A stretch of DNA of 64,000 nucleotides. Source: Nemertoderma westbladi. Its lineage: Eukaryota; Animalia; Xenacoelomorpha. This document shows, in pieces, positions 1-26,429 of this stretch (the first letter of the stretch is position 1; each line of letters begins with the position of its first letter). The notes below the pieces were generated by a model. That model did no database searches and was not told the DNA's origin. It was given only the letters and a program-made list of their open reading frames with translations. Where the stretch lies: NCBI GenBank assembly GCA_032718475.1, contig JAUCBJ010006792.1, positions 1 through 64,000 of the forward strand, read 5' to 3'. The translations under genes were made by a program, and so were the position numbers.

Positions 1-2688
1 ACCAAGACACTCGGCTTGAAATGGGACACAGAGAGAGATATCCTGTTTTTCCAACTAAAACAGCGAGATAATCCTGTTCGGACTAAACGGATTTGTTTAA
101 GTATCCTGAGCACTTATTTCGATCCATTGGGATTTATTAGCCCAGTTATATTGATTGCTCGAAGTTTGGTACAACAAATGTGGCTTGAAAACCACTCATG
201 GGACGATCCACTTAAGGGGGAATTACTGAAGCAGTGGATGAAATGGGAAGATTCTCTACCGGCTATCGAGGAGTTTATAATTTCCCGTTCATATTTTGGT
301 CATGTTCTCCCTACGTATTCCTATCAACTCCATGTGTTTGGAGACGCCAGCGATATGGGAATCGGTATAGTAGCCTACCTAAGAGTGGAAACTCCGGATG
401 GAATCAAAGTCGCCTTGGTTACTTCTAAGGCATTAATCAACAACAAGTTGAAAGTTCCTCGAGCGGAGTTAAAAGCGGCTCTATACGCTACAGCCATCGG
501 CCGGAATGTAACCGAACAGATTGACTATACATTAGAGAAAACTGTCTATTGGACCGACGCTTTACTCGTGTTAGAGTATATAACCAATGAAGTCTGTCAG
601 TTCAGCGTCTTCGTTACCAACAGGGTAGCCATCATACTTAGTCGCACGACGATGGACCAATGGAGACATTGCCCCGGAACGATTAACCCAGCAGACATCG
701 CGTCCCGAGGAGCGACTCCAAAGGAATTGGTAAATACTCCCGAATGGTTAGGAGGACCTGACTTTCTCTACAGGGAAGAAGAAGAATGGCCTCCCCATCT
801 CACAACAGCAGAGATCAGACAGGCCAAGGGAGCGGAGAAAGTTAAACCCAAAACTCGAGCGAGTAAATCGAAGTTGTTTAAACCTGCGGTTGATCAATCT
901 GTATTATTTACTTCCGGAGATGATGCTTTGGATCAGAAACCCACCGCCACGACCAAAGTAGTCTTGGAAATCCGTGACAAGGATTGGAAATCTGGAATAC
1001 CAGATATCTCGCAAGGACTCTCACCTCTCTTGCAGAGAGCGATACGTCACTACAGTTCCTGGAATCGGCTCTGTAAAGCTGTTACCTATTTGAAACGATG
1101 TTTTCATCATCGTTACTCCGGAACAAAGACCAATAGTGATGATGCTCCATCAACATCTGCACGAGTCCATGTTGTTAAAGATCTTCCCCAATACAAGGTA
1201 TCCAACAGGTTTCTAAAGGAGAAGATCAGTTACCAGGAGCATGATGAAACCAACAAACAGATGCTGAGACTCCTACAATGCTATGAGGATTCCGATAAGT
1301 ATTTCCTGTTGTTAAGAAATCCGCAGATGCGCTTAAGGGATCGCTTCTCTAGTACCATGATAGATGGGTTAATACGTGTTGGAGGTAGGCTGACCAACGC
1401 CCCATTATCCTTTGACACTAAGTTTCCCATACTCATTAGAAATCTTGATATACAAATCAAGATGATTGTAGATGTTCATAGCAAACTGTACCATGCTGGA
1501 AGAGAACGAGTTCTGAGCGAAATTCGAACTCGCTACTATTTTTATAAACCCCGTAGGGCTCTGAACCAAGTTCTTAGGAACTGCATACCCTGTAGGAAAG
1601 CATTCAGTAGGCCTTTAACGCAGCGAGAGGCAGAATTACCTAGGGAAAGAGTAAGCTTCTATGAACCACCCTTTACTAATACCGGTGTGGATTTATTTGG
1701 CCCTATTGAAGTATATCGTGCCCGGACTATAGTCAAGAGATGGTGTGTCATCTTCGTTTGTATGACTTGTAGAGCTATCCATCTCGATATGGTAAACGAT
1801 CTATCCACCAACAGCTTCGTGTTGAGTTTACGACGACAGATCGCTCGCTTCGGAACCAGTAACACGATGAGATCGGATAAGGGAACGAACTTCATTGGCG
1901 CCAACAACGAAATTCAAGCTTACGTAAAGGACTGGAATAAAAGACAGGTGGACGATCAGCTAAGGATAACAGCGTCTAGCTGGACCTTCAACGCCGCCGA
2001 CGCCCCTTGGTGGGGAGGAAGTTGGGAGAGATTGATTAGGAGCGTGAAGACTGCGTTCCACTTTATTGTGCCTTGTCGCGCTTATCTCACCGACGAACTA
2101 TTGCGGACGTTAATGGAGGAAATCGCCGCCTATCTCAACGAAAGACCGCTTATGCCAGTCTCTTCAAATCCTGATTCCCTGGAAGCGCTAACACCCGCGC
2201 ACTTTCTACTGAAGAAACCCGTAGCCATGCTCCCGCAATCGGAGATCACAGACGGAGACGAGTACTGCCGTCGAACCTGGCAACTTATGCAGTTGCTATC
2301 CCGTCGTTTCGCTGACCATTTTGAGAAACATTACCTGCCCACTCTACAACTTCGAACTAAGTGGTTTGCGCAGCAAGAAAACGTCAGCGCTGGAGACATG
2401 GTGCTTATTGTGGACCCCGATCTCCCACGTAAGCGATGGCAAACAGGACGTATCATCGAGACTTATATCTCGAGCGATGGTTTGGTGCGATCAGTAGAGC
2501 TCGTCGTCATGCGGCGGAACTTTAAGAAACCAGGGATAGTCTTTGAGACTCAACAGCTCAATCGCCCAGTGGGACGTTTATGTTTACTGGAAAGAGACAG
2601 AGAGCTCTCCGGAAACTATGGAAGGCAAGAAACTCTTCCCACGACCACTTCCCTAATCCAACCGACATCTAGGGACTCCCCAACTTAA
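1..2688 (+). CDS. pol: BEL/Pao Pol polyprotein, C-terminal part (RT end, Pao RNase H, H2C2 zinc finger, DDE integrase, DUF5641-like tail); 5'-partial
   Basis: Frame is open from base 1 (TKTLGLKWD). Motifs: FDPLGFISP, LHVFGDAS, PRAEL, WTD, NPADIASRG, H-x3-H...CxxC, GVDLFGP, SDKGTNF, PWWGGSWERLIRSVK, LTPAHFL, DGLVRSV. Confidence 0.95.
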   Translation, partial: TKTLGLKWDTERDILFFQLKQRDNPVRTKRICLSILSTYFDPLGFISPVILIARSLVQQMWLENHSWDDPLKGELLKQWMKWEDSLPAIEEFIISRSYFGHVLPTYSYQLHVFGDASDMGIGIVAYLRVETPDGIKVALVTSKALINNKLKVPRAELKAALYATAIGRNVTEQIDYTLEKTVYWTDALLVLEYITNEVCQFSVFVTNRVAIILSRTTMDQWRHCPGTINPADIASRGATPKELVNTPEWLGGPDFLYREEEEWPPHLTTAEIRQAKGAEKVKPKTRASKSKLFKPAVDQSVLFTSGDDALDQKPTATTKVVLEIRDKDWKSGIPDISQGLSPLLQRAIRHYSSWNRLCKAVTYLKRCFHHRYSGTKTNSDDAPSTSARVHVVKDLPQYKVSNRFLKEKISYQEHDETNKQMLRLLQCYEDSDKYFLLLRNPQMRLRDRFSSTMIDGLIRVGGRLTNAPLSFDTKFPILIRNLDIQIKMIVDVHSKLYHAGRERVLSEIRTRYYFYKPRRALNQVLRNCIPCRKAFSRPLTQREAELPRERVSFYEPPFTNTGVDLFGPIEVYRARTIVKRWCVIFVCMTCRAIHLDMVNDLSTNSFVLSLRRQIARFGTSNTMRSDKGTNFIGANNEIQAYVKDWNKRQVDDQLRITASSWTFNAADAPWWGGSWERLIRSVKTAFHFIVPCRAYLTDELLRTLMEEIAAYLNERPLMPVSSNPDSLEALTPAHFLLKKPVAMLPQSEITDGDEYCRRTWQLMQLLSRRFADHFEKHYLPTLQLRTKWFAQQENVSAGDMVLIVDPDLPRKRWQTGRIIETYISSDGLVRSVELVVMRRNFKKPGIVFETQQLNRPVGRLCLLERDRELSGNYGRQETLPTTTSLIQPTSRDSPT

Positions 2689-5936: not shown

Positions 5937-7153
5937 TGTAAAAGCTTTTGTGGGATAACTGATTAGTTTGCCTTGTTGGCCAGTTCCCCCCCAGTCGCTA
6001 AGAATACTCTCAAAGTGATCTATAACTAAAAATAGTGCAAGTTACCAGCTTATTGGCTGATTTGCTATACGCAGGCATCTGGGCTCTGTTTAATCGGCCA
6101 ACAAGCCTAGGGAGGTTGCGTCATAGCCTTGTGTTGTATCTCCCAATAGAATTTGAGTTAGCCTTGATTTCGACCTATCACAGAGCACTGAACTGAAAAT
6201 TTCCTATCTCACTGCTCTTTCTCTGTGTTGAACGGGAGCTTCGTGGAATAAGGGAGTTGGTATCCTCGTATAGAGCAGTAGTCACGAGTTTTTCAAAGCC
6301 ACGAAAGAACGGCTTTTAGTGTTTTATGTTTTATGCTTTTTAGCTCAACACTAGTAGGTTTAATTACAAGGACATATATCCTTTAACTGACTGATGATCA
6401 TACGGACTGCCTGGCGACAGCAACTGCTGCCACACGGCTTTTAATAACTGCTGAAACTGCTAAAATTACCTGCTCAATCAATACCGTATACTGCTATTTG
6501 TTGTTGGTTATTCATTATATTGGTTGATGAATTATTATATTGGAATAACGAGAAATAACCCCGACACCCAATATTCTTGATATACCGAAGGTAAGAGAGA
6601 AAGGTTAACAATAACGATTGTGACTTATGTTAAAGTGGTTTGAAGTGAATCTAATGTTATTTGATAGACCCTACATGAGTCAGTCTGTGTTCCTTTTATA
6701 TGTGACTAAAATCAGTGAAGATTGGCAGATTAGTGTGCAGTATTGTGCAGCATTGCGTATGAGCGAGCCTGTTAAAGAAGCAATTCCTAAAGAATGCGCC
6801 ATATATGTGAATTATAATTAAGCCATATCGTTGTGAGTAGTTTAAGTCATAACTCTGTTTATATAGATAAAGCGCCACGTCCTAAAGGAACTGTTAATAT
6901 TCCCGAAGGTAAATAATATTGTCAGAGATTATATAATACTGTCAGTCGAATAATACATTAGGTTTACATAGCAATAAAATTAAACCGTCGAACCCAATCT
7001 CCCAGGAATATCCAGCGGGTGAATGGTCGCGCACGGATTGGTTTCGACTAGTGTAGTGAATCAAATACTTGTCATAGGCTAAAAAGCGATTTAATATCTA
7101 AAAGACATCTTAATTTGGCGGGTTAAACTGCCAAAGGTCTGAAAGCGCGAACA
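5937..7153 (+). repeat. 3' LTR of copy 1 (1217 bp)
   Basis: TGTAAAAGC...GCGCGAACA. Homologous to 12085-13250 (-) and 27311-28585 (+), with shared blocks GCGCCACGTCCTAAAGGAACTGTTAATATT and TCCAGCGGGTGAATG. Confidence 0.9.
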
Positions 7154-9289
7154 GCAAAGTAGATGCTAAGGCTCCTACAACCATAGAATTCTGGTATTCA
7201 TGAGACTTACCTAACCAATCTAGTTGTCTACAGATCTCCTGAATCTCGTCGGAAAACTCTATAATCCCGCTGCTAAGAAACTTTCGGGGCGCCATTAATT
7301 TCGCATATAAATACCTAGCTATGTTAGTCCTATTACCATACCTGATGTTCAGTGTATCCCAAACTTGTCTTAATCCATCTGGATGTCCAATAAACTTTAA
7401 CGCCATTAACTTGGGAGATCCTTCCAAGCACTCGATGAGGAATCTCAGTTTCTCTCCGTTAGATAGCACAGAGTTCTGTATGTTATCTTTGTAATATTCA
7501 TTAAAAGGTAACCATTTCATTTCATCTCCATTGAACTTGACGATCTCTCCCACCTTTACCGCTTGACGGGCTTCGGTTCTAGCCATTTGACGCGTAAAAC
7601 TTTCTTGGGCCATCGTGTTATTTAATATCGAGTTATCGGTATATAAATTTCTCGGATTATTATCAAGTCTATATGGAATATCATTGTCAATAGGTTTATA
7701 ATTACCCTTAATAGGGTTTACTATAGGAGTTTCCACTTCACTAGCAGTATAGATGCGTGTAGGCTCCACACCTTGCGCATGAAATACTTCAGACCTAACA
7801 GGTTGACACATTGTTACAGGGGGTGGTGGTATACCCTTTTGGAGATTTACTAATTTATCGCGTTCTAACGCGATATTTTCCTGCACTTCTTGCAACTCTA
7901 ACCTACTCTCTCTAATTGTTCCCTTTAACTGCTGCACAGTCCCCTCCATCTCCTGGACTTGCTGAGAGGAGCGGGAACGGTGTTCCCTCAGCTGCCCGAG
8001 CAGGAGACCCATCTCCCGTCGTCCCTCATCTACCCACTCGACCGCCGAAGCGGGAGGCGCCAACGTTGTAGCGGGCGGACGAGGGACAACGGGCGACAAA
8101 TCATTAATATTTCGCTCGGAGTCCAGGACATGAACATTTTCAGGGGTGGTTCTGTGGGGCACAGGTAGCTTAGTGCTGTGCAGAGGGAATTTAGAGGTAG
8201 GTTCAGGGAGTACAGGTGTCTCTATCACCGAAGGGGTGGCTTCGAGAACAGGCCTAATTATTTCAGGCTCATCTACTATAGTAGGGAGTTTTTCTATTTT
8301 AATTATTTGGTCTGTGGGTTCTGTACTACCTAAGTCTGTGTTAGTTAGTTGCCTTCTAACAGCTGGGGGCAAATCAGGCAATTTCTGACGGTGGGCATTC
8401 TTCTACGCCTGCTTAGACGAGATCTATTTCCTCCGCCTTCAGGATCAGTGGTATCGCCTTCATCAGATGATGTAAATCCCTGTCGTTTGGGATTAGATCG
8501 ACTTATCATCTGCATTTGACTAGCTGTTAACTGTTTATTTATGCAGTCTTGATTCTCTTGAATATTTTCCAACTCTAGTTGGGTGGTCTCCTCAGACGCT
8601 CTCCGTTCTGCTTCTGCCACTGCCATCTTTCTTTCCGCCTCTGCCGCTGCTACTGCCGCTGCTGCAGTCTTTCTGTCTTCTATTATCCTTTTCTTTAGTT
8701 GCTCTTCTAGGACCCTAGCGATGCGGAGTCTTTCATCAAATTTAGGTTTGTTCGCAGCTAACATTTCCGCATCTAACGAGTCCAACACCAATTTGGTTTC
8801 TTCACTCTTAGGGCGAAGTCCAGCTAGCCGTCTCCTTAACTCTTTGTCACCTATAAATCGTTGATAGTCTGACAGATAGATGTCAATAGCGTCCCTCTCA
8901 TGCGGTTTCTCTGCTGTCGCTTCACTTTCCACTTGGGAAAAGGTAGCTTCTGTTGATTCTCCATGGGTTGAGCGCTCAGCCAGCTGAGATTTCCACTGGG
9001 CTGTTTCTTGAACCTTGAGACCCACCCGCTGGAACCAAGTCTTTACGGCAACTTGCAACGGCGTATCTTGGCTTCTTTTCGAAGCTTCCTCAAAGGCCGA
9101 TAGGATTAGTCTGATTCTTAGAATTCTTTCTCGAACTTGATAAAGCAGCTCTTCCTGCTTTTGAGGTCTTTGCCATTGTTGAAACAGGTGTTCCTCTAAG
9201 CGCTCCAAAGAGCTGAAGAATCCCTGGACATATTCTGCTGCCGACCTCTCCCACACAGCTGGATCACTCGTGTTTCTTGTCACTCTCAT
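7154..9289 (-). pseudogene. gag: BEL/Pao gag (coiled coil + DUF1759-like domain), frameshifted at ~8390 and truncated by the copy 1 insertion
   Basis: ORFs 8345-9289 and 7110-8381 together match the single ORF 31376-33319. Pao gag motif KFNGDEMKWLPF...EKLRFLIECLEG...L..RYG. The last 14 aa of the ORF come from the inserted LTR. Confidence 0.88.
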
Positions 9290-9301
9290 CCTGTGTAAGT
9301 C

Positions 9302-9895
9302 CTATAAGTCTGATAAGTTAAACGGGAGTCCGGGTCCGGGGAAGTTCCATTGCTTCTCGACAATAGACTTCAGTTCCTCCACCGTATATCCCGCATAACT
9401 GACCCCCCTCGTGTATTCCGCACAACCGTCCCCAGTCGATCGCTTACTTCTCGCCCAACCGACTGGATGTTCTTCCACAGCGATCAATACTCTAGCGAGT
9501 ACGTTCCCTGGAAGAATGAGAAGGGGATCCGTATAAACCGCATCTGCCATCTTTGCTCCGCGCTCGGGTGTCAGCTCTACAGTATCGGAACTACTGGAAC
9601 TATCGGGCTGTTGGGAAATAAGTTCTCGTTTCGTGTACTGCTGCCATTTCGCTGCCTCTTGGTCCCGCTTGACTTGAGCCCTAGTGCCTATAATAGACCT
9701 ATGGTGCTCTACCAGTCTAGGGTCTGACACTACTACTGTAGGGATGGCTTTTCTTACAGTAGGAGGGGACTTAGACTTTGGTCTGGGATGTTCTATACTT
9801 TGATCTTGGTCACAGATCTTTTTAAGACACTGTCTAACAGTCATTCTAACACTTTCTATGAGACTATCTGACAGTGTTTGTTGTGAGTCAGACAT
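9302..9895 (-). CDS. ORF0, 197-aa ORF upstream of and in frame with gag; function unknown
   Basis: Open ATG-TAG ORF, homologous to 30819-31363 (HHRSIIGTRAQVKR, WNFPGPGLP). The stop lies 4 codons before the gag ATG. Confidence 0.65.
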   Translation of the reverse strand: MSDSQQTLSDSLIESVRMTVRQCLKKICDQDQSIEHPRPKSKSPPTVRKAIPTVVVSDPRLVEHHRSIIGTRAQVKRDQEAAKWQQYTKRELISQQPDSSSSSDTVELTPERGAKMADAVYTDPLLILPGNVLARVLIAVEEHPVGWARSKRSTGDGCAEYTRGVSYAGYTVEELKSIVEKQWNFPGPGLPFNLSDL

Positions 9896-10033
9896 GTTTG
9901 TTTGTACAGTTGAATGCCTACTGCTATATTACAGTTAAAGCAAGTTTAGTAATTCACTATCACTGTTAGCCTAGTAATTAATTACTGATATCGTCACTCA
10001 GTGCAACTTAATATATATACACCATATATTAGA

Positions 10034-10283
10034 ATACCGGTATACACTTATAGTATATATATAAGTATTATTACTGACTAGATTTGTCACAGAATACCGG
10101 TATGTAATTTCAGCACAAATATATATAAATATATAATAGGCCTATCGTGAATACCGGTATACAGCTTACACTTATAGTATACATAAGTATAATTATGGAC
10201 TAGAATTAATTACAGAATACCGGTATAATTTCAGCCTAAATTTATAGAAATAAATATAATAAGTCTATTGTAAATACCGGTAT
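10034..10283. repeat. Cluster of five ATACCGGTAT palindromes in the 5' UTR (homologous cluster at 30466-30740)
   Basis: Perfect 10-bp palindrome at ~10034, 10074, 10151, 10216 and 10274. Confidence 0.85.
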
Positions 10284-11234
10284 ATCAATTATTTTAGAAT
10301 AATTAAATTTCTGAATTTTAGGGGTTACTTGGTTACTTTAACTTACTTTATTACCGTTATTTAAGCAGTAGTCCAACTGATATTGAGACCTAGTTGTTGT
10401 ATGGCAGGCCTACTATTTATAAATCGTTTGAGTTGATTTATAATATATATACCCGTTTTAATGGGTTTTTGTCAATATTTGAAATAAATGTTATTATTTC
10501 TGGAAAGAGTCACCACACAGAAGCTGTGCGCTCTCAGTGAAGTGCTACTTGTTGGACACTAAAACAAATAATTCTAATTTACCTAAGTTACTTAATACTA
10601 CAAATTACATACAATTCGGGGTGAGATTACAATCTCTAAATAAACACAAAAATTACACGTACGAATTTTTAGGGTAATTTTACAAGAAGTCTACAAACCA
10701 GCCTAACAAAGGGTTAGATTATCTGGTTATTACAACGGACAGAGTACTACGGTATTTGAAAATAATAAGTAGTAGTAAATATACTGCGTTGTCCAGATAG
10801 GAAAAATACCACCGTCTGACGACTTATAGCCGTATCGCTATAAGTACTACGTTATGTATCACGGAGTGTTCCTACCTAGAAGTTAATTACCGCGGTCTAC
10901 CAGAACCAACGTGCCTATTAACCACTTTACAACACAAATATACTGCCTACACGCTAATTACCTTCGGAAAGCACTGTACACTAAACCCTAAATTAGGTAC
11001 AAGTACTTGTACAACAAATAATCAGTAGTTAAAAATACTTGAACAGCTAAAAGAACCACGGCATCTGCTGGAGTGACCGGGGCACAAAATCACCAGTCTT
11101 TACCTACGCCAAGCAGCCCTGATGTAGTACCGGGGTTAATTTAACTATAACGGTATGTATAACAAGCACAATTACTGTAGGAATAAACTTGGGGTTATGA
11201 ATGTTGCGAATAATCGCATAAACTCTGAATAATA

Positions 11235-11810
11235 AATATTACGCTACCCGTACAAACTACTCAAACAAAATGCAGACCAAATACTGACAGACTACTATCA
11301 AGCCTAAACAAACAACGGTATATGCAGACTCCGAAATGGTTAGTTAGTATGCGTTCTAACCGAGTAGTACGACTTATTCTTTCGAGGGGGTTCACCTCAC
11401 AGCACTGGCAGCCCCTACTTTCCTAACTAGTACTTTTTTGGACATATGCTCTACACACACTACAGTCCCTTAAGACCTAACAACAGCCAGACAACAATCT
11501 AGCCTATAAATTATCTGAATGAGAAATATCACGGTACCTGTACAGATTACACAAACAAAGTACAGACCAAACGCTGGCAGACTACTATCAAGCCTAAATA
11601 CACTACAGTATATGCAGACTCTGAAATGGTTAGTTAGTATGCGTTCTAACCGAGTAGTACGACTTATTCTTTCGAGGGGGTTCACCTCACAGCACTGGCT
11701 GCCCCTACTTTCCTAACTAGTACTTTTTCGGACATATGCTCTACACACACTACAGTCCCTTCAGACTTAACAACAGTCAGACAACAGTCCAGCCTACAAA
11801 TTCTCTGTAC
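11235..11810 (-). repeat. ~290-bp tandem duplication in the 5' UTR (homologous duplication at ~28950-29510)
   Basis: TATGCAGACT at 11321 and 11611 with near-identical following sequence; 288-bp period in copy 3. Confidence 0.9.
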
Positions 11811-12072
11811 AATCTGAGCAGGCTTACACGCCTTCTGCTCAATATTAGCCTACAAATAAATAAAACTGACAGAAATAGGCGTAAGTAAAATCCCAATAAA
11901 AACCAGGCGTCCCCGATTAATTATTAAGACCTACTGGTATATAATTATCAAAATCGAATAATACTGCTGTACCTGTACTGCTGTAGGTACCGGTCCGGGT
12001 GGTTAGGTGGTCAGGCCTACTGGGTACCGGTTGCCCGTACTTCAGCTTTATTGCCTACTGCAATACAGAAGC

Positions 12073-12084
12073 TATATCTGTTAT
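12073..12084 (-). promoter_or_regulatory. Non-tRNA primer-binding site candidate of copy 2 (ATAACAGATATA)
   Basis: Abuts the LTR CA with no TGG. 11/12 complementary to the LTR-internal TATATCCGTTAT (12805-12816, minus sense). Confidence 0.6.
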
Positions 12085-13250
12085 TGTTCGCGCTTTCAGA
12101 CCTTTAGCAGTTTAACCTGCCAAATTGGGATGTCTTTTAGATGATAGATCGTCTTTAGCCTATGACAAGTATTTGATACACTACATTAGCTGAAGCCAGT
12201 CTATGCGCGATCATTCACCCGCTGGATATACCCGGGAGACTGGATTCAGAAGCCTAACCGTATTGCGGGGTAGGCCTACTGTATTATTCGACTGGTCGCA
12301 ATATATATAATCTCTGACAAATATTATTCACTTTCGGGAAATATTAACAGTTCCTTTAGGACGTGGCGCTTTAAATATATAAACAGAGTTATGACTTAAA
12401 CTAGACACAACGGGATGGCTATAGATTCACGTATATGGCGCATTCTTTAGGAGATGCTTCGTTATCAATCACAGTCATACACAATACTGCACAATGCTGC
12501 ACACTAATCTGCCGACCTTCACTAATTTTAGTCACATATAAGGAGAACAACAGACAATACGTGTAGGGCCTATAAAATAGCATTAGATTCACTTCAAACC
12601 ACTTAATGTAAGTCGCAATCGTTATATGTATCCGGTCTCTCTAACCTTTAGTATATCAAGAAGATTGGGGTGTCTGATTGTTTATCAGTATTCCAAATAT
12701 AATATTTCATCAACAAATATAATGAATAACCGACAGCAAAAGCAGTAATGTTAAGGTATGAATTATTATGAGTGACTGAGTGAGATATGATCAGTTATGA
12801 TTAGATAACGGATATACGTTCTACAATTAAGCCTACTAATGTTGAACTAAAGACTGAAACACGGAGGTTCCACGCCGGTGTTGTAGGCTGTGGACAAAAA
12901 TCACATACACTGACTCACTTCACTAGTTTCTATATACAATCTCCAACACAGAGGCAAAAAGCGCTCTGATTGGTCGACCGAACAAAGAGAGAACAAAGAA
13001 CAAAGAGATGTTCTACGTGGCAATATCAGCTGTTAGCCGTCATCATGGTATCTATACTGTTTCAAGAGGATCCGGCGTATTGCGTCATAGAATTGCTAAT
13101 CATGTCCGCTAAAGTACACATACAGAAGAAATGGCTTTTATGTCCTCTAAAACAACAGTACAGTAAGGACACGGCCTTTTATGCCTGTTAAACCAACTAC
13201 AGAGTACTTTACGGGGAAAATAACCGGCTAATTACGCAAAAGCCTTTACA
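12085..13250 (-). repeat. LTR of copy 2 (1166 bp), flanked by a PPT upstream and by the 5' UTR downstream
   Basis: Minus strand reads TGTAAAGGC...GCGCGAACA. PPT at 13251-13258; CCAAT box at ~12968. Confidence 0.9.
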
Positions 13251-13328
13251 CCGCTCCCAGAAAATGGGATTTAAGTCTATAAAATATAACAAATTACAGT
13301 TTCTAAAATATAAAAATACTCTAAACAG

Positions 13329-16300
13329 TTAGTCTTTCTTACGCGGACGGCGTTTACGCAGTTTTTTGAGGTTAACAAGAGTCCTTTTCTCTTTGGGGCA
13401 AGCCACTTTACTAGGAGGGCTGTAACTCCTGGGTGAAGGGTGCAATACAATTGCATCAGAAGGTTTAGGATTACGATCGGTGTATCCGCCGGTCGAGGTA
13501 CCTGGTTGATCGATATCAACTTCAGTGGAGCGAGGTCTAACGGCCTTTAGGGCGCGTCTTAGGACAGCAGCTCCTACGGGTCCTTGACGGGTCGTCTGGA
13601 CAATGGCGGTAGGCGGACCGTGAGTGGTAAGAAACTTCCTTGGTTTAATGGTTCTTTCCAGCTCGCGTTCTCGGGCTCGATATTCGTAGGGCCGTCGAGA
13701 TACTTCCTGTAACTCAGGGTGCGAGTTGATAAATAAATCGCCATACTCAGGGTCTTGACGGATGAAATTGATCAAATGATATGAAGTAATATCGTTAGGA
13801 TTGACGTTCCTAAGATATTTTCGAACAAATTTGGTGGAAATACACTCACCAACACGCTTCATTAGTTCGTAACTCGGTGTGCATGTTTTTTGTTCCACAG
13901 ACGCGAATAAATAAGGATGGAATGTGTAAACTCCCTCGTAAGAGCGTCCAGGGTAGTAGCGATGGCGGGCCTCACAATGTAAATCCGCATTCGCTTCCCA
14001 GGCTCGGATGTAGCGCAGGGTAATCATCTCATCTACGCTTTCTAAATCGCGGTTAAAGGGGCAATTATAACTGGCATGTCTTTTAAGTTGACAGTGGTGA
14101 CATTGGGTCATAAATTGGGGGCAGACTGCAAAAATATGCGAGTTATTAAGTCTGCAATACGCACAATAGATCTCCATCATCGGCTGTTCGTGGAAATAGG
14201 AGCAGGGTACGTCTGAGTCCATGGGTGTGAAATGGTCTCTCGATGCGCATAATCGACAACGTTTTCGAGAAACATAGTTGGCGTGTCGATAATCGTATGC
14301 GGTGAGACATTGTGGACCTTGATACCACTCCAAGACGTAATCGTTATCGCTGCTCCGGGGCGCTGTAGGCTGGATCGCGTCAGACTCTAAGCAGATTGGT
14401 TCGTCTTCCAATTGCATAGCTGAGGTAGGTGCGGCTGTCTCTGTAAGCGGACCCACTGTCTGAACTTCCACGACAGAATAACCCGTGGGTATTCGGGGTC
14501 TTTGTATAACAGATGAATGTAAGTTCTGTATACAAACGTCCTGAAAGAGAGCAAATCTCGCGCTGTTTAGCTTCTCCGCAGTTGAGTCTCTTAGGCTGAG
14601 TTTGGTCAGAGCGCGGTCCTTGAACTGACTATCAACGTTACGGAACGGAGTCAGAAAGCGCCTGAAACATTCGAAGCGGATGAATTTATTATGTTCATCT
14701 AACTTGGCGAGTTTGGTTCCAAGTATTAAGGGATGGGCGCGTATGGTACGACTGCACACATCGGCTAGCCAACCGGCAAGTGCTGCGTTTTCAAAGATCG
14801 TGTATATAGCTAAGGAGGGACGAAGTGGAACACTCATAAAGCTATACACGGCGCCAGGTGCGGTCAATGGTCCATCAAAGTATAAACGAGAATAATGATC
14901 TCCATATACTTGTTGGTAATTTATAGGATTTCCAACCTTGAAATTCCATCCGTATTCTTGAAAGGCAAGATGTCCGATGGAGGTTCGTTGTACTTTGGTA
15001 ATGCCGCTGGGTGTATTGGCATACATAGTGCGGAAGAAACCTCGGCCTTCTGCCCAGGGAGCAATCAGCTGAGTATCCACGAAAGGGTATGGGATGTTCT
15101 CCATATTCCGAAAGTCGTTTTGTAGATCGCCATAAACAGCTGAGCCGATTTTAAGGATTCTTTCGTTAAACAACATCTCGAGCACGGGTTGGGGTAACAT
15201 CGATCCATTGATACCCATGGCCAGTTTGCGCTCGGTGTCGGCGACGTAACGCTGCACGAGCTCGAATTGTCCATGTCGGAGTCTCTTTTGTGTCTCAGTA
15301 AGAGTTTCAAAAGAATAATCAATCACATCGGAACACGCTCGAGTAAATACGTGGGTAGAACCAGCGAGTCCTCGCATGTGTATCATCCGCGTAGTTCCCA
15401 GTTCTCCAACCGGAACGCTACCTTCGTTGTCATAGGTGACAACTCCATACATCTCGATAACGTTAAGAGTCTCATTCCACTCTTTAGTGGCGTTTTCGAG
15501 AGTCATTCCCACAGGATGCCATAAGGTAGCGCATTCGCTAGCATTAGGTAGGTCTCTATACTTTAAATATTGTGTGGTATATGTTTCCACATCTCCATAT
15601 CGTTGTATTCTTTCCTCCGCGAATAACACGTCAAGATTCCAGTGTACTAAACGAGTTTTGATGAATCCATCAAGATTATACGGAGGTATTGTTTCTTTCT
15701 CTATTCTGGAAACATTGTATGGTTTTCGAAATGAGTTTATTTTAACCAATTGATCCAGATGTTTATGCAGTTGTTCGAGTTCAACAAGATCGAGAGGATT
15801 TATGAGTGGCAGAAACCTCAGACTATGTGTAGGATCTTCCGGTTTTACCATGTAATATTGTGTTAGGTTAACGTAATAAGGGTGATCTTTGATCCCATAA
15901 AACGAGTCCGGTAAAGGTCTAGCGCGTATGTTTACATCGTGTACCATGCGACAGACAAGATCCGCTCTATTGTCCGGAGGTTCAACGAGTATACCATCTA
16001 CACGAGCGGCTTCGATGGGTGGACGTTGCAACATAGGAGCGTCAGCGATAAGCTCTCTAGATCTTAGGTTGATATCAACCGGTTGGGGTTGTATCGTCGC
16101 AAAGAGTTTGTCTCCAAAATGGGGAACCATCGAGGGATGAAGGATGGTTTTAGAGTAGAGATCCGTCATAAGGATTTGAGCTTTGGGTTGAGCTAAAGCT
16201 GCTTCTTCTCTCTCATCTAGTTTTATATGTCTCTCCTCGAGCTGATTTTCCTCCGCTTGTTGTTGTAGACGCTCATCTAGGAACTCTTGTAAAGAGTAGG

Positions 16301-17582
16301 TTCGTCCACGTTCGATGTCCTCTTCGAGATTTTGTATTTCTCTATCGAACTGGGGTAAAGCTAATTCCTTCACCGCTTGGACTTGTTGTTGCAATTTACG
16401 TTTCTCCAAACAATCGTAAGTTCCCTTTCCGATTTTCTGCCGAATAGCGTCTGACGCGTTTCGTACGACGCTCTCTTTGACTTCCGTAACGGGTTGTATC
16501 GAGGTGAAGCCGGGACGGTTGTGTGGGTTAAACGGCGATATTAGATGACCGCGTCCCAATCCAGCTAGGTAGGGTTGGCGAATATCTAGCGAGCCTACTA
16601 CCGGAGTGCCACCGATCAACTGTTCAGGTAACACTAGATCTTTGAACAGTGAATACAGTTCGGGAGGATCCGTGATACTATTAGGATCAAGAGTCTGAGG
16701 TCTAACTGAGGAATGAGGAGGTATGACCGAGTATTCCGGAACTCTGATCATTGGTTTGTTCAAGGATCGTTTGAGTCGAGCAACCGTAGGGGATACGTCG
16801 AACAGGTTTCGCTCGAAACTCCCATAAGTATATCGTGTAAAACTGTGTTTAGCGCAACGTCTCCGCGGATGTTTATGTCTTTCTGTTTGCTGATTGGGTC
16901 TAGGGCATTCGTCGCAGTAATACCAAAGACGCACGTCCTGCAGGGGAAACGCGGGTGATCGATCTCCAGTTTTACAATATTCCTCCATCTGTTCGAAGCT
17001 ATCTGGGACAACAGGTAGCGGTCGATCGGCGGTAAGATACATCATAGTAAAATAGAGTCGTTTGAGTTCTATCATAGGATCATGATGTATACCTTGGGGA
17101 TATCGAGTTTCGAGATTTTGTTGACTGGCAATATTGAGATATGTCTCTCTCAGGAATTCCAGATAATCGTTGAAGTCGCTGCGTTTATCCGGCTCTTCAA
17201 CGTCTTCCCTTTCGAGTTTGTTTCGAATAGAGTTCTCGTGTTCTATTCTCGGTTTATCGTTCCGACTCCGCTGGGTATGATATTTAAATAAAACCATTTC
17301 CCTTTCGGTATCTACATCGTCCGTATCGTGTAAATCGATAGGATGGCCGGTAGTTAAGAAGTCCATATACGTACCATTACGATGCGTATAGCGAGCGGTG
17401 AACTTTCTATAATCCAATTCACGCGTAAGTTGCTCCTGGGACATTGGCGGTTCGATATAACGACCATCATCCTCCGTAGTAGTTGGGCCAGCGTCGCCGC
17501 GTATCAAGCTATCGACAAACGCTTGTAAAGGTAGAGTATATCGCTCCCTAATACCGAGATCATCTTCTATCAACTCAGTCAT
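13329..17582 (-). CDS. ORF3 (env position), 1417 aa: N-terminal Cys/His motif, coiled coil, DEDDy-like (WRN/EXD/RNase D-type) 3'-5' exonuclease domain, three CCHC zinc knuckles, basic C-terminal tail
   Basis: Intact 4.25-kb ORF between pol and the PPT. ExoI VVTYDNEG (D718, E720); ExoII LPQPVLEMLFNERILKIGSAVYGDL (D819); FVDTQ; SIGHLAFQEYG; ExoIII PLRPSLAIYTIFE (Y927, E931). Knuckles CX2CX4HX9C, CX2CX5HX4C, CX2CX4HX4C at aa 1109-1174. No evident signal peptide or TM anchor. Confidence 0.85.
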   Translation of the reverse strand: MTELIEDDLGIRERYTLPLQAFVDSLIRGDAGPTTTEDDGRYIEPPMSQEQLTRELDYRKFTARYTHRNGTYMDFLTTGHPIDLHDTDDVDTEREMVLFKYHTQRSRNDKPRIEHENSIRNKLEREDVEEPDKRSDFNDYLEFLRETYLNIASQQNLETRYPQGIHHDPMIELKRLYFTMMYLTADRPLPVVPDSFEQMEEYCKTGDRSPAFPLQDVRLWYYCDECPRPNQQTERHKHPRRRCAKHSFTRYTYGSFERNLFDVSPTVARLKRSLNKPMIRVPEYSVIPPHSSVRPQTLDPNSITDPPELYSLFKDLVLPEQLIGGTPVVGSLDIRQPYLAGLGRGHLISPFNPHNRPGFTSIQPVTEVKESVVRNASDAIRQKIGKGTYDCLEKRKLQQQVQAVKELALPQFDREIQNLEEDIERGRTYSLQEFLDERLQQQAEENQLEERHIKLDEREEAALAQPKAQILMTDLYSKTILHPSMVPHFGDKLFATIQPQPVDINLRSRELIADAPMLQRPPIEAARVDGILVEPPDNRADLVCRMVHDVNIRARPLPDSFYGIKDHPYYVNLTQYYMVKPEDPTHSLRFLPLINPLDLVELEQLHKHLDQLVKINSFRKPYNVSRIEKETIPPYNLDGFIKTRLVHWNLDVLFAEERIQRYGDVETYTTQYLKYRDLPNASECATLWHPVGMTLENATKEWNETLNVIEMYGVVTYDNEGSVPVGELGTTRMIHMRGLAGSTHVFTRACSDVIDYSFETLTETQKRLRHGQFELVQRYVADTERKLAMGINGSMLPQPVLEMLFNERILKIGSAVYGDLQNDFRNMENIPYPFVDTQLIAPWAEGRGFFRTMYANTPSGITKVQRTSIGHLAFQEYGWNFKVGNPINYQQVYGDHYSRLYFDGPLTAPGAVYSFMSVPLRPSLAIYTIFENAALAGWLADVCSRTIRAHPLILGTKLAKLDEHNKFIRFECFRRFLTPFRNVDSQFKDRALTKLSLRDSTAEKLNSARFALFQDVCIQNLHSSVIQRPRIPTGYSVVEVQTVGPLTETAAPTSAMQLEDEPICLESDAIQPTAPRSSDNDYVLEWYQGPQCLTAYDYRHANYVSRKRCRLCASRDHFTPMDSDVPCSYFHEQPMMEIYCAYCRLNNSHIFAVCPQFMTQCHHCQLKRHASYNCPFNRDLESVDEMITLRYIRAWEANADLHCEARHRYYPGRSYEGVYTFHPYLFASVEQKTCTPSYELMKRVGECISTKFVRKYLRNVNPNDITSYHLINFIRQDPEYGDLFINSHPELQEVSRRPYEYRARERELERTIKPRKFLTTHGPPTAIVQTTRQGPVGAAVLRRALKAVRPRSTEVDIDQPGTSTGGYTDRNPKPSDAIVLHPSPRSYSPPSKVACPKEKRTLVNLKKLRKRRPRKKD

Positions 17583-19212
17583 ATCTGCTATGAGTTTATC
17601 AATATTATAATGAGTTTATATATTAGGCTAGCGGGCGTCGCTGCTTACCCCTCTTTTGCCCCCGGACAGTGCAAGATCCTCAGCGCCGATGTAACGTCGT
17701 CGCTGTGCTTTCGCCAACGATGTAGCTACACAACGACAACGATAACCGGCACAAGTCACTCCACTGTCCGTCCCAAAGGCTTAGATGTACTTCAGGTTCT
17801 TTCTGGAGAGTTAGGGTTACTTTCACAATTGCGACTAGCTACTGTAAACACACTTTAGCAGTAACATTCACCTATGAACGCACAAATTCAACACAACTGC
17901 CATAAACTGTACACATTCGGGCCATTTGTCCGTTAGTCAGTACCTTCCAGAATGTCACTGTATTTATTATGTATCCTTGGATACTAGCAGTGCGCTGTTT
18001 ATTCCCTATGCTATTCAATGGGGCAAGCTTTCTATTGTTCTTTTAACTCACTTCTAATTCTAGCGTGGTTGTTGCCATGGTGACATTATGGAAAGCTAGC
18101 GGTAGAATTAGGGTAATTCTCATGCATACAGATCTGGGATGCTATTTAATAGTAATTCTTTAATTGTCAATATCCTCTCTATATATGATTTTATAAATTT
18201 TATCGGCTATTGACTATATATTGGAGATTCTCGCACACCAATACACTTAATAGAGTGAATCTCCGCTCCCATGATCTATTAATTAATGGAATTTTGGGAA
18301 TGTTATAAATTGTACAAAATGACAATTTATTAAATTCATTGAAATATATGAATTTAAATTTATTCCCGTAAATTTTATTATTTAATGTTAAATAGACGTA
18401 ATTTTATTCCAGAACGTGTCTGGGGACTGGGATCCTAGATTCTAGGAATTTTGTCTTTTTAAGAGTATCGGTAAGTGCTACGATATCTTAATCGACTAGA
18501 ATTTTAAAGGATCTAAAATTTGACAGATTTTGTAAATATTAATAGTTAATATTTAGGATGAGCACCAGTTTATTCCAGAACTTGTCTGGGGACGTTAACC
18601 ACTGATTCTAGAATTTTGTCTTTCAAGTATATCGGTGGGTGCCGCGATATCTTAATCGACTAGAATTGCAGATGGTCAAAGGGTTTAACAAATTTATTTT
18701 GCGTTATACGCTACTGTTAAAGGGACATCACGCTACTATATGTATTATTTAATATACGGTATGAGAGCAATATCGCACGAAGCAATGTCAGTGTGAAGAG
18801 GCAAGTCGTTTCCAAGGTCTACCCAGAGCTTGGTTTAGCCGAGACACGAGGATCTGAACTTTGCATTCCTAATACTCTGCCTACCAATAATACTTGAATA
18901 TAGTAGTGGCTTTATTGTACTTTAATAAGTATGGACATTTCATCTTACTGTAGTTACGTATTCGTAATGTAATACGGGCAGCAAGGAAAGATAAAAAGAA
19001 TTGTTTCTCGCCGTCGCACTAAATATATAATATAAGTAATTACGTAATAAACGCGAATATATTGCACTAATCTACTAAATAATCGCTAAAATAACATGCT
19101 ACTAAATAAAATTAAATAAAACGATTATAATAAAATTACATAATAATACATACATAAATATAAAATAATAAGAATATAAAATAATATGGTCACACACCCA
19201 CTCCATATGCTA

Positions 19213-20852
19213 CTAAGCTGGGGAGTCCCTAGATGTTTGTTGGATTAGGGAGGTGGTCGTGGGAAGAGTATCTTGCCTCCCATAGTTTCCGGAGAGTTCT
19301 CTGTCTCTTTCCAGTAAACATAAGCGACCAACTGGGCGATAGAGCTTCTGCGTCTCGAAGACAATTCCCGGTTTCTTGAAGTTACGTCGCATGACGACGA
19401 GTTCTACCGATCGCACCAAACCGTCATCCGAGATGTGAGTCTCGATGATACGACCTGTCTGCCACCGCTTACGTGGAAGTTCTACATCCACAATAAGAAC
19501 CATGTCTCCAGCGCTGACGTTTTCTTGCTGCGCAAACCACTTAGTTCGAAGTTGTAGCGTGGGCAGATAATGTTTTTCGAAATGGTCAGCGAAACGACGG
19601 GATAACAACTGCATGAGTTGCCAAGTTTGCCGGCAGTATTCGTCTCCGTCTGTGATTTCCGATTGTGGGAGCATGGCTACAGGTTTCTTTAGTAGGAAAT
19701 GCGCGGGTGTTAGCGCTTCCAGGGAATCGGGACTCGATGAGACTGGCATAAGTGGTCTCTCGTTGAGATAGGCGGCGATTTCCTCCATTAACGTCCGCAA
19801 AAGTTCATTGGTGAGATACGCGCGGCAAGGCACTATAAAGTGAAATGCTGTCTTCACACTTCTTATTAATCTCTCCCAACTTCCTCCCCACCAAGGGGCG
19901 TCGGCGGCGTTGAAGGTCCAGCTAGACGCTGTTACTCGTAGCTGATCGTCCACCTGTCTTTGGTTCCAATCTTTGACGTAAGCTTTGATTTCATTGTTGG
20001 CACCAATGAAGTTTGTTCCCTTATCAGATCTCATCGTGTTACTAGTGCCAAAGCGAGCGATCTGTCGTCGTAAGCTTAATAGAAAGCTGTTGGTAGATAA
20101 ATCGTTCACCATGTCGAGATGGATAGCTCTACAAGTCATACAAACAAAGATGACACACCATCTCTTGACTATAGTCCTAGCACGATATACTTCAATAGGG
20201 CCAAATAAATCCACACCGGTAGTAGTAAAGGGTGGTTCATAGAAGCTTACTCGTTCCCTAGGTAATTCTGCCTCTCGCTGTGTTAAAGGCCTACTGAATG
20301 CTTTCCTACAGGGTATGCAGTTCCTAAGAACTTGGTTCAGAGCTCTACGGGGTTTATAAAAATAATAGCGAGTTCGAATTTCGCTAAGAACTCATTCCCT
20401 ACCAGCATGATAAAGTTTGCTGTGAACGTCTACAATCATCTTGACTTGTATTTCAAGATTTCTAATGAGTATGGGAAACTTAGTGTCAAAGGATAGTGGA
20501 GCATTCGTTAATCTTCCTCCAACACGTATCAACCCATCTATCATTGTGCTAGAGAAACGATCCCTTAAGCGCATCTGTGGATTTCTCAACAACAGGAAAT
20601 ACTTATCGGAATCCTCATAGTATTGCAGGAGTCTCAGCATCTGCTTGTTGGTTTCTTCATGCTCCTGATAACTGATCTTCTCCTTCAGAAACCTGTCGGG
20701 TATCTTATATTTGGGAAGATCTTTAATAACATGGACCTGCACTGATGTTATTGGAGCGGTATCACCTTTGGCCTTCATCCTGGAGTATTGATGGTGAAAA
20801 CATCTCTTTAAATATGTAACGGCCTTACAGAGCCGATTCCAGGAACTGTAGT
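19213..20852 (-). pseudogene. pol: BEL/Pao pol integrase region of copy 2, 5'-truncated, with one premature TGA at 20392-20394
   Basis: ORFs 20392-20862 and 19213-20214 are collinear with copy 1 pol. CGA>TGA at HAGRE*. Homology stops at 20852. Confidence 0.93.
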
Positions 20853-21371
20853 TGATAAACAACCGCGACCTCTATACTAACAGCAGAACTGTTGAACAGA
20901 CCAATACCCGTTAATATCCTTCTGCCAACCTAATAAGTTCTCGTCTAACCAATAAGACACAAAGACTGCTCTACTGTTAAGTAAAGGGGATCAGGAGCGT
21001 GCTATTACTAAATTGTAAGGGTTGCTAAATACAAAACCGCTACTTACCGTTAGATGGCGCTAATCTGCCGTCCACTAATATATTTTACTAATTTTACACT
21101 ACTCCTGCAAAATCGCTTGTTCCTTTCTCTACCGATCGCTCGATAGAGAGCTAACTGTTCGAATCTATGAGCCACGCGGGAATAACCAAAACAATAAACC
21201 CGAGTCGGCTCCCTAAGCTTACTTAAGACGAGTGCGAGAGGCCTTGCACTCAGAGTATTCTTACGCCTAATTTTATCACTATTAAAGCACGCTATTACCT
21301 ACGTCTTTCTAATCGCGAATACTGGAGGTTCCCTAACGTAATGTGTGAATGCGAGAATATTTAAAATATCA
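20853..21371 (+). mobile_element. Possible 5' LTR of an unrelated LTR element inserted in pol (followed by a UTR-like tract to ~22180)
   Basis: Begins exactly at the pol break with TGATA; a matching TATCA at 21367-21371 is followed by AAA-TGG; AATAAA at ~21193. No second copy in the window. Confidence 0.4.
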
Positions 21372-22239
21372 AAATGGTACAGTATCTGTTTCTACGTGGA
21401 TAATACCACTCCGGGTCTAAAACTGCCCGCGACTGGCTTTAGGCCAGCAAAATTACTAGCGTATCGTGCGTACCGAATAGTGCATTCTAGCTGATTGTCC
21501 GCTAATGCAAATAACCGCTCAGCGTGAATAGTTTACAGTACACTAATTATTACCTTAGCTACTCTCCGCTATGCTGCGTACTAATTCTTAATTTTTTACT
21601 AATTAATTACAGTCACAAATATTTAACAGCGTACTAATTACTAAGAGTTCCAGAATACGTAATTCTAATTTATCACGCAACAGGTTTCGCTAGTAATAGC
21701 CTAATTTGCCGTATTACTTTGACCTAATCAGTAACTAATTATTGTAACTAAGAAATAGAAATCAATCAAAGGAAAAGAGCGCCTATCTAAGCATTCGTAA
21801 TCTTAGGCACACTTCAATAACACACCAATCAGCGTTAGAAATCACAGTTTACAATTGTGCAATTCACTACTCGTACTCCACACTCAACGTTGTAATACGC
21901 GCAGGCCTCTCCCGGGTACATCTAGGATTCCTAACTAACCCAATTCCTGCCCCCTAATACTAAATAGAGACAAAACCTGGATCATCAGCCCCCTAATTTG
22001 CTGTACCGGCGATCGGTCTGCGTGCCGCAGTGCAAGTTACCCGCCCGCAACGGTGACCCTAGCCAGCGTTGCCCGCTTTGAATCCTCCGCTCTCTCCTAG
22101 TCGCCCAACCCCCCGATGCGCCCACCGCCCACTGGCACCTTAGCCCTCCATTACGCTAATAGCTACCGTAGCGGCGCATGCAAATCACAAAGTCTGACAG
22201 TTTCAGGAATCCCTTGGGATTATTGCGCAGAAAAGAATC

Positions 22240-24645
22240 ACATAGAATTAGGCATATCAAGAAGGTATTTTTTTTAAAGTTTTGTAAATATATATTTCAA
22301 TTTGGAAGCCCGAATATTTTCGGGAAGGTCATTCCAGATTTTGACGCCCTGAAATTTGAAAGAGCGATGAGCGACAATGAGACGGACATTAGGGAGATAG
22401 TAAAGAGCGATGAGCGACAACGAGACGGACATTAGGGAGATAGTAAAGAGCGATGAGCGACAACGAGACAGACATTAGGGAGATAGTAAAGAGCGATGAG
22501 CGACAACGAGATGGACATTAGGGAGATAGTAAAGAGCGATGAGCGACAACGAGACAGACATTAGGGAGATAGTAAAGAGCGATGAGCGACAACGAGACGG
22601 ACATTAGGGAGATAGTAAAGAGCGATGAGCAGCAACGAGATGGACATTAGGGAGGTAGTAAAGAGCGATGAGCAACAACGAGACGGACATTAGGGAGATA
22701 GTAAAGAGCGATGAGCGACAACGAGACAGACATTCGGGAAATAGTAAGAGAGCGATGAGCGACAACGAGACGGACATTAGGGAGATAGTAAAGAGCGATG
22801 AGCGACAACGAGACGGACATTAGGGAGATAGTAAAGAGCGATGAGCGACAATGAGACGGACATTAGGGAGATAGTAAAGAGCGATGACCGACAACGAGAC
22901 GGACATTAGGGAGATAGTAAAGAGCGATGACCGACAACGAGACGGACATTAGGGAGATAGTAAAGAGTGATGAGCGACAACGAGACGGACATTAGGGAGA
23001 TAGTAAAGAGCGATGAGCGACAACGAGACGGACATTAGGGAGATAGTAAAGAGCGATGAGCAACAACGAGATGGACATTAGGGAGGTAGTAAAGAGCGAT
23101 GAGCAACAACGAGACGGACATTAGGGAGATAGTAAAGAGCGATGAGCGACAACGAGACAGACATTCGGGAAATAGTAAAGAGAGCGATGAGCGACAACGA
23201 GACGGACATTAGGGAGATAGTAAAGAGCGATGAGCGACAACGAGACGGACATTAGGGAGATAGTAAAGAGCAATGAGCGACAATGAGACAGACATTAGGG
23301 AGATAGTAAAGAGCGATGAGCGACAACGAGACAGACATTAGGGAGATAGTAAAGAGCGATGAGCGACAACGAGACGGACATTAGGGAGATAGTAAAGAGC
23401 GATGAGCGACAACGAGACGGACATTAGTGAGATAGTAAAGAGCGATGAGCGACAACGAGACAGACATTCGGGAAATAGTAAAGAGCGATGAGCGACAACG
23501 AGACAGACATTAGGGAGATAGTAAAGAGCGATGAGCGACAACGAGACGGACATTAGGGAGATAGTAAAGAGCGATGAGCGACAACGAGACGGACATTAGG
23601 GAGGTAGTAAAGAGCAATGAGCGACAACGAGACAGACATTAGGGAGATAGTAAAGAGCGATGAGCGACAACGAGACAGACATTCTGGAAATAGTAAAGAG
23701 CGATGAGCGAAAACGAGACGGACATTAGGGAGATAGTAAAGAGCGATGAGCAACAACAAGACGGACATTAGGGAGATAGTAAAGAGCGATGAGCAACAAC
23801 GAAACGGACATTAGGGAGATAGTAAAGAGCGATGAGCAACAACGAGACGGACATTAGGGAGATAGTAAAGAGCGATGAGCGACAACGAGATGGACATTAG
23901 GGAGATAGTAAAGAGCGATGAGTGACAACGAGACGGACATTAGGGAGATAGTAAAGAGCGATGAGCGACAACGAGACGGACATTAGGGAGATAGTAAAGA
24001 GCGATGAGCGACAACGAGACGGACATTAGGGAGATAGTAAAGAGCGATGAGCGACAACGAGACGGACATTAGGGAGATAGTAATTTTTCGATGTTGTCAT
24101 GTCGCTCTCGTATTATATGGGTGAATGTCAGAGACCTTTGAAAATAAATTAGAGAGACTTGAATTGCCGGGATTGTTGGATATATCAAACATTACCGTAG
24201 CTACTTGCTGTATGTATAACTTTTCAATTGGTAGAATCCATAGTTCTTTGTAAAGTTGAGTAGCTGAGGATCGGGAGTCGGAAAATATATCTCTTAGTAC
24301 TTTATTAACACACACCTTGAGTGGGTGAATGAAAGAATGATGTGTTACCCCAAACTATAAGAGCATACAAAAGATGTAAGGATGGATTTAGTAAGTAATA
24401 TACTTATCTGCAGTTTGGTCCTATCTATTCCATAATTAGCTTACTAGGCCCTCATGAGTACCAGCAGTTAATGTAAAGTAAAGCATACGCAATATTTGGC
24501 GCAGAAGGACATAACGTAACTTGTAAAATATTCCAATGGATTTTGATATTTTTTTGTGTATATACTATATAGTTAGTGTGTGTTTTCCAAGACATGTCAG
24601 AATCAATCTAAAGCCCTAAGTATTTAGTCATCAGAGTTTCAGAAA
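22240..24645 (-). mobile_element. 3' fragment of a CR1/L2-group LINE ORF2 (LINE A), split by the minisatellite
   Basis: Minus translation KYLGL..DSDMSWK.H...LYKELWILPIEKLY...HPYNTR..NYYLPNVRLVVAHRSFKFQGVKIWNDLPENIR, the typical LINE C-terminal WN.LP motif. Confidence 0.8.
22359..24083. repeat. Minisatellite, 43-bp unit, ~40 copies
   Basis: Unit AGAGCGATGAGCGACAACGAGACGGACATTAGGGAGATAGTAA, starting at 22361, 22404, 22447 and onward. Confidence 0.97.
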
Positions 24646-26225: not shown

Positions 26226-26429
26226 TCAGGGAACTCAGCACCACTCTACCACATATTATCTTGCCCCTCTAACCGGAAATCAATTTCAACGTGGGCGGAA
26301 GAAGAGTAGGAATCTTGTACATTTAAATTTATTTTAATGTATATTTATAATATATTGCTATATATTTTAAGTATATTGTTATTTGCCAATATCACGGCGT
26401 AATTCATTCATTATTTTAATATTACGAAA
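26226..26429. other. 204-bp unidentified insertion in the LINE B RT domain
   Basis: Flanked by AGCAC (26221-26225, 26430-26434). Removing it restores FADDTKIFCADNIDNRILLQ. Confidence 0.7.

Follow-up and report, generated by a model that had tools for sequence, protein, structure and literature searches.

An intact accessory gene in a BEL/Pao retrotransposon

We analysed a stretch of 64,000 nucleotides, here called the window, from the xenacoelomorph Nemertoderma westbladi (GenBank assembly GCA_032718475.1, contig JAUCBJ010006792.1, positions 1 to 64,000). It contains two copies, A and B, of a BEL/Pao long terminal repeat (LTR) retrotransposon, and copy B carries an additional, intact open reading frame (ORF) downstream of pol, which we call ORF3. 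The features of the two copies are as follows, in window coordinates.

19213..20865, minus strand: 3' part of a BEL/Pao pol (integrase, DUF5641) of copy B, 5'-truncated; from Pfam and alignment
17583..19212, minus strand: non-coding spacer of 1.6 kb between pol and ORF3
13329..17582, minus strand: ORF3, 1417 amino acids (aa), intact; from the ORF call and public-run coverage
13251..13260, minus strand: polypurine-tract-like sequence, the same in copy A
12840..13250, minus strand: LTR, TG..CA, 411 bp
12827..12839, minus strand: conserved motif without TGG in the primer-binding-site position; exact match after three of three LTRs
7110..12826, minus strand: long 5' leader and broken gag (DUF1759) of the next tandem element
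178..2688, plus strand: copy A pol (RNase H, integrase), with PF05380, PF17921 and PF18701
4340..5858, plus strand: copy A ORF3 remnant with an internal 2.7-kb deletion, seven indels and 12 in-register stops
5937..6350, plus strand: copy A LTR

A Pfam scan of pol in the window recovered three BEL/Pao families, PF05380 (Pao RNase H), PF17921 (integrase zinc finger) and PF18701 (DUF5641). Copy A pol contains all three, and copy B pol, which is 93% identical to it, contains DUF5641. A gag with DUF1759 (E-value 1.6e-12) lies in the neighbouring tandem element, and a polypurine tract precedes a TG..CA LTR in both copies. Since pol carries these three families and a nearby gag carries DUF1759, the element is BEL/Pao, and the assignment of ORF3 to it is supported. 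Among the matches listed, database relatives of pol reach 43% identity at most and are spread over many phyla; 120 listed relatives also carry the Pao RNase H, integrase zinc finger and DUF5641 families. Copy B has an intact ORF3 but no gag, reverse transcriptase (RT) or 5' LTR belonging to it; its match to pol ends at 20865. No RT core of the ORF3 family was located within the window.

ORF3 is an ATG-started open frame of 4.25 kb. An earlier prediction, made from the sequence alone, had described an intact 1417-aa ORF between pol and the polypurine tract and LTR. This was borne out: ORF3 spans 13329-17582 (minus strand), between the 3' part of pol (19213-20865) and the tract and LTR (13250-12840). 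The prediction had further taken the second, decayed copy to show that the ORF belongs to the element, and for the nuclease described below this did not hold. Copy A retains only approximately aa 1-457 and 1366-1417 of ORF3; with the nuclease and zinc-knuckle region deleted, it is no evidence that the nuclease belongs to the element. That evidence comes instead from coverage and variants in public sequencing runs. Contigs from each of four runs covered 30 of 30 bins of positions 11900-21900, and one run held tens of thousands of variant contigs for this region. Both observations fit a multi-copy family, although contig counts and read depth were not taken as copy number. A near-identical copy A deletion joint occurs in contigs of three of the four runs.

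The variants indicate selection on the protein. Twenty-five of the 40 variants listed (2320 further ones exist) fall in ORF3, and 16 of these 25 are synonymous, against an expected 34% (p 0.002). For aa 711-950 we used all 31 common variants in the full list (share at least 35% in two runs); 25 were synonymous, against an expected 32.5% (p 5e-8). None of the 31 affects codons 718, 720, 819, 836, 927 or 931, and common indels are absent from the list for aa 711-950, although rows are partly non-independent and an absent row does not prove invariance. The prediction had named a ratio of nonsynonymous to synonymous substitution rates (dN/dS) near 1 as evidence against itself; between copies A and B the ratio is 0.23 over 437 ORF3 codons (aa 1-457) and 0.08 over 547 pol codons. 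ORF3, including its predicted exonuclease domain, is thus under purifying selection among family copies, and we regard it as an accessory gene, intact here, that belongs to a BEL/Pao family.

These data bear on the possibility that ORF3 is a captured host gene or a chance set of motifs, carried as a passive passenger. In favour of this, ORF3 has no Pfam match and a single homologue, and deletion derivatives without the domain occur in DNA runs. However, the frame is open over 4.25 kb, profile scores exceed those of all shuffles (see below), and the strong synonymous excess among copies largely refutes passive carriage, which we regard as highly improbable.

No match to ORF3 or to a hidden Markov model (HMM) of DEDDy exonucleases was found in 80 related BEL/Pao loci, of which 15 have at least 2 kb of downstream sequence. 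ORF3 homologues were also absent from two word-indexed protein searches, scans of viral and metagenome contigs, plasmids and PDB sequences. Large ORFs after the integrase in six metagenome BEL/Pao loci were considered as candidates and rejected, being the gag or gag-pol of the following copy; in these six loci the following gag begins 0.5-1.1 kb past the integrase.

Two further observations concern ORF3. A second large internal deletion (14409-17215) was present in contigs of two of the four runs, giving several deletion derivatives. A TATA-like stretch lies about 33 nt 5' of the ORF3 ATG, with CAG just before the ATG (17585-17622, minus strand), and may be an internal promoter or a splice acceptor.

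A predicted RNase D-like exonuclease domain and zinc knuckles

ORF3 has one homologue, P0121, among 1.84 billion representative proteins (E-value 2.7e-6, 30% identical). The predicted features within ORF3, several of which were placed with its help, are listed below.

14733..15500, minus strand: RNase D/DEDDy-like exonuclease domain, approximately aa 695-950, with two insertions; from profiles, homologue and model
15423..15431, minus strand: putative ExoI, D718-x-E720, aligned with P0121 D62/E64 and bacterial DTE
15075..15128, minus strand: putative ExoII, D819, and downstream DTQ motif (D836), from the E. coli RNase D alignment; the best-supported part
14790..14804, minus strand: ExoIII-like Y927-x3-E931, with Glu in the Asp column, from P0121 Y229/E233 and a column match in the trimmed alignment
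14061..14258, minus strand: three CCHC-type zinc knuckles, aa 1109-1174; zf-CCHC_3 E-value 0.013, below cut-off
13335..13367, minus strand: basic C-terminal tail, KKLRKRRPRKK at aa 1406-1416

The motifs named in the prediction lie where it had placed them, with YDNEG at aa 717-721, FVDTQ at 834-838, SIGHLAFQEYG at 868-878 and KKLRKRRPRKK at 1406-1416. The NCBIfam RNase D family matches aa 798-842 (E-value 0.0028). In the alignment with E. coli RNase D, D819 falls on the Asp of the GSEDL motif, which we take to be catalytic. An HMM built from 72 bacterial PF01612 domains gave ORF3 10.1 bits, compared with 2.3 for the best of 500 shuffles; an HMM of the RNase D subset gave 10.9 bits, compared with 1.8. 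An ordered-motif chain selected D718, D819 and D836 with a score of 18.9 (best of 100 shuffles, 6.2). A language-model search (Atlas) returned PF01612 clusters at 0.92-0.93, the 0.93 cluster sharing 173 features; when PF01612 was skipped, mostly other DEDD-type families followed at 0.75-0.78. A profile of two sequences matched the RNase D profile with a probability of 93%. The domain nonetheless scores under every curated DEDDy, PF01612 and RNase D family cut-off. A DEDDy/RNase D-like domain with Glu for the last Asp is therefore supported, though weakly by sequence.

P0121 is a protein of 648 aa from a 9.4-kb contig, and its layout is that of ORF3: an exonuclease, a low-complexity linker, three knuckles and a basic end. 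The first 690 aa of ORF3 have no counterpart in it. It has D62, E64, D130, D147 and Y229-x3-E233, the last preceded by a WRN/RNase D-like W..PL...QLY motif, and, as aligned, D718, E720, D819, Y927 and E931 of ORF3 are all kept. The conservation of D718, E720 and D819 that the prediction had expected among homologues is thus apparent in the sole homologue found. The ExoII-III and knuckle blocks shared by ORF3 and P0121 score above 300 of 300 shuffles. P0121 also backs the ExoIII reading of the prediction, PL.....Y...E (Y927/E931). A different ExoIII candidate, GPLTAPGAVYS at aa 904-916, was discarded, since P0121 aligns to the later PL..Y..EN motif. Viral contigs contained no relatives of P0121.

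This conservation is relevant to whether ORF3 could be a pseudonuclease, binding RNA as an adaptor in the manner of EXD1 or Egalitarian, either to chaperone, export or package element RNA or to sequester small RNAs uncut. Such a role would accommodate the Glu in place of the ExoIII Asp, the large insertions and knuckles, the 690-aa N-terminal part without assigned function, and the presence of EXD1 (Z 9.7) and Egalitarian (Z 8.8) among the fold neighbours of the model. Pseudonucleases, however, usually lose acidic active-site positions. In ORF3 the four acidic positions and the Tyr are common to the 30%-identical P0121, and no common variant falls on them. The prediction had left nuclease and pseudonuclease side by side; because all four acidic positions are shared, we consider the latter less likely than it allowed, and unlikely overall.

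The model built from the trimmed alignment had a predicted local distance difference test score (pLDDT) of 58.8 and a predicted template modelling score of 0.60, with aa 722-794 under a pLDDT of 50. In the fold comparison WRN, Klenow and RNase D each reached Z 10.4, with root-mean-square deviations (rmsd) of 3.2-3.4 over approximately 162 aligned residues (WRN: rmsd 3.2, 161 aligned). Foldseek gave no match at E-values of 0.001 or lower; its best was 0.023, with DEDD nucleases in the top ranks. A single-sequence model of ORF3 had no usable fold (pLDDT 29). We think it very probable that the domain has a DnaQ-like, RNase D-type fold.

The prediction had counted three CCHC knuckles. All three are present at 14061-14258, with spacings CX2CX4HX9C, CX2CX5HX4C and CX2CX4HX4C, but only the last is canonical. 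They resemble nucleocapsid and Air2 types, a signal that comes from P0121. The basic C-terminal tail resembles a nuclear localisation signal. A possible further zinc site, C223-x2-C226 ... C243-x2-H246, was noted in the N-terminal 690 aa (16845-16916, minus strand).

Fold, knuckles and tail also bear on whether the substrate could be DNA, with ORF3 proofreading for the RT or trimming complementary DNA ends before integration. WRN and Klenow equal RNase D at Z 10.4, the tail is basic, and the DEDDy domains of Dada transposases have been proposed to process DNA 3' ends (PMC3706591). On the other hand, the sequence signal is strongest with RNase D profiles, the knuckles are of nucleocapsid/Air2 type (through P0121), and ORF3 is a separate ORF that is not fused to pol. 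We therefore find a DNA exonuclease quite unlikely, and RNA the probable substrate.

Possible functions of ORF3 and the surrounding window

ORF3 probably combines an end-trimming nuclease of the RNase D type with zinc knuckles, and is likely an active RNA 3'-trimming enzyme. An active site with Glu as the fourth ligand seems somewhat better than an even prospect. The protein would be expressed from its own subgenomic RNA, which we infer. Its knuckles would bind single-stranded RNA and pass the 3' end for trimming to a two-metal site of the RNase D type, in which Glu would be the fourth ligand. Host silencing small RNAs are the leading candidate target, plausible by analogy. In that case Piwi-interacting RNA (piRNA) or small interfering RNA (siRNA) guides or their precursors would be shortened or destroyed, and silencing of the element family would weaken. 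We put this target forward tentatively.

Several results weigh against this reading. The Pfam check suggested with the prediction (PF01612, zf-CCHC) returned a zf-CCHC_3 match below cut-off (E-value 0.013) and no exonuclease match for the whole ORF3 protein or its sub-regions, and the NCBIfam RNase D score is 17 bits, far under the cut-off of 299. Of four profile subsets, the two from small stand-alone proteins gave no useful score. Neither the motif chain nor the bacterial profiles alone recovered ExoIII, and its canonical form Y-x3-D is replaced by Y927-x3-E931, with Glu rather than Asp as the fourth ligand. D718/E720 occupy the ExoI column in the motif chain and in two alignments, including the trimmed one, but one deeper alignment places D755 there. 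As to the DEDDy match that had been predicted, the fold family stands above all shuffles with the RNase D HMM, whereas the ExoI block is not significant alone, its ORF3-P0121 score being reached by 115 of 300 shuffles. P0121 may not itself be an ORF3. As 14 of the 16 rows in the model alignment are bacterial DEDDy proteins, the fold result is partly circular, and a fold match indicates compatibility rather than independent proof. Lastly, no clear link was reported between the DEDDy ORF3s of bdelloid rotifers and copy number (PMC5408684).

The same active exoribonuclease might instead serve replication of the element, by trimming a host RNA into a primer for the RT or by maturing the 3' end of the element RNA. 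The TGG of a primer-binding site pairs with the CCA end of a tRNA. A 13-base conserved motif without TGG stands in the primer-binding-site position at 6351-6363, 12827-12839 and 27787-27799. That all three LTRs of the window, although only 54-59% alike, are followed by the same motif would suit such a role. Processing of the 3' ends of structured RNAs is an activity of RNase D-type enzymes, and it has been suggested for the bdelloid ORF3s (PMC5408684). Yet the complement of the motif is not above chance in the window (nine matches, 7.95 expected), the element primer search found no tRNA or Rfam match, and no such ORF was recovered from the 80 related BEL/Pao loci, 15 of them with 2 kb or more of downstream sequence. 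A replication role therefore appears rather unlikely to us.

Trimming of silencing RNAs, if true, would mean that an animal LTR retrotransposon has turned the fold of piRNA/siRNA 3'-trimmers against the guide RNAs of its own host. It is doubtful, though conceivable, that an undescribed family of D-E-D-E exoribonucleases with knuckles, carried by transposons and used as counter-defence, has ORF3 and P0121 as its first members.

The rest of the window contains other elements. Both 3' LTRs run directly into the leader of another element, and we therefore describe these as tandem elements with a common LTR (5937-7153, plus strand; 12840-7110, minus strand). The 5' leaders (9290-12826, minus strand; 27800-31375, plus strand) are of unusual length, approximately 3.5 kb, and contain an internal duplication of 290 bp. 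The three LTRs (5937-6350, 12840-13250 and 27311-27786) are only 54-59% alike, whereas beside copies A and B the ORF3 3' ends are 92% and the leaders 83% alike, which we read as fast LTR turnover or exchange between subfamilies. A broken RT (PF00078, E-value 4.5e-17; 25104-26954, minus strand), in our reading similar to long interspersed elements, adjoins the LTR of the third element. A 43-bp tandem array occupies 22232-24200. A 30-kb array (33700-64000) of 1.5-2.1-kb units, interrupted by 5/10-bp microsatellites, ends the gag region of the third element.

Comparison with known systems

The extra ORFs known from BEL/Pao elements are fusogens, namely the F-like protein of roo and the gB-like env of mosquito elements (PMC13524379). 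ORF3 is likewise an extra ORF, but no env features were found in it: its best 19-residue hydropathy is 1.19, below transmembrane strength, and it matches no glycoprotein family. Its description as standing in place of env was overstated, as few BEL/Pao elements have env (PMC3118150). A term count of that BEL/Pao survey gave no mention of an exonuclease. Dada DNA transposons also carry a DEDDy exonuclease, with a canonical DEDD motif, but theirs is inserted in the transposase of a DNA transposon (PMC3706591). As a side observation, one fish gene model (P0049) contains PF09588 and PF01771 alongside BEL/Pao pol domains. These two families we take to be YqaJ/viral alkaline exonuclease, and the model is possibly another nuclease capture, or else a fused gene model.

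Among cellular enzymes, ORF3 shares the ExoII and DTQ motifs, the ExoIII Tyr and, putatively, ExoI with the PF01612 group (WRN, RNase D, Nibbler/MUT-7, EXD1 and Rrp6), which gives top fold matches of Z 9-10.4. It differs in having Y-x3-E for Y-x3-D and two insertions, and in falling under all curated cut-offs.

Juno, Vesta, TelKA and Mag are Ty3/gypsy-type elements. For bdelloids these are the lineages listed, with no BEL/Pao among them in the text covered (PMC5408684). The precedent named in the original prediction is real: DEDDy ORF3s follow pol in Juno and Vesta, both LTR retrotransposons, and DEDDy domains occur in Athena/Terminon elements as well. The 2017 paper gives their motif as DEED and did not assay them (PMC5408684); they recur in reviews (PMC5718144, PMC6431247, PMC6338049). 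Like ORF3 here, they are separate ORFs after pol with an RNase D-like domain and no env features. By description, their motif is DEED, compared with D-E-D-E here (ExoII being Asp), and the available text describes no knuckles (PMC5408684). Roles in 3'-end processing and silencing have already been discussed for them (PMC5408684), and this published precedent lowers the novelty of our finding. New in our finding are BEL/Pao as the host lineage, the motif D-E-D-E, the fusion to knuckles, the size and the evidence of selection on the domain. The literature searched held no BEL/Pao element with such an ORF; Repbase, GyDB and supplements lay outside that search and may hold one. An intact, selected DEDDy ORF3 in BEL/Pao suggests that LTR elements repeatedly gain from such an enzyme, which bears on how animal retrotransposons resist piRNA/siRNA silencing. 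The Y-x3-E motif shared with P0121 bears on whether Glu can act as a fourth ligand.

The closest working model for ORF3, by analogy, is the RNase D of Trypanosoma brucei (TbRND), in which an RNase D exonuclease is likewise followed by CCHC knuckles. TbRND trims small guide RNAs; it depends on its knuckles to bind RNA, and guide-RNA levels fall when it is overexpressed (PMC7797062). It was recovered in the ORF3 fold search (PDB 7c42; Z 8.0, rmsd 4.4, 181 aligned) and, over the knuckles only, in the knuckle sequence search (E-value 3.1). TbRND is a host enzyme with four regular knuckles after a 28-aa linker, whereas ORF3 has three irregular knuckles approximately 160 aa away, and the likeness is one of shared fold and knuckles rather than established homology beyond the fold. 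It nevertheless points to knuckle-dependent trimming of small RNAs as a direct test.

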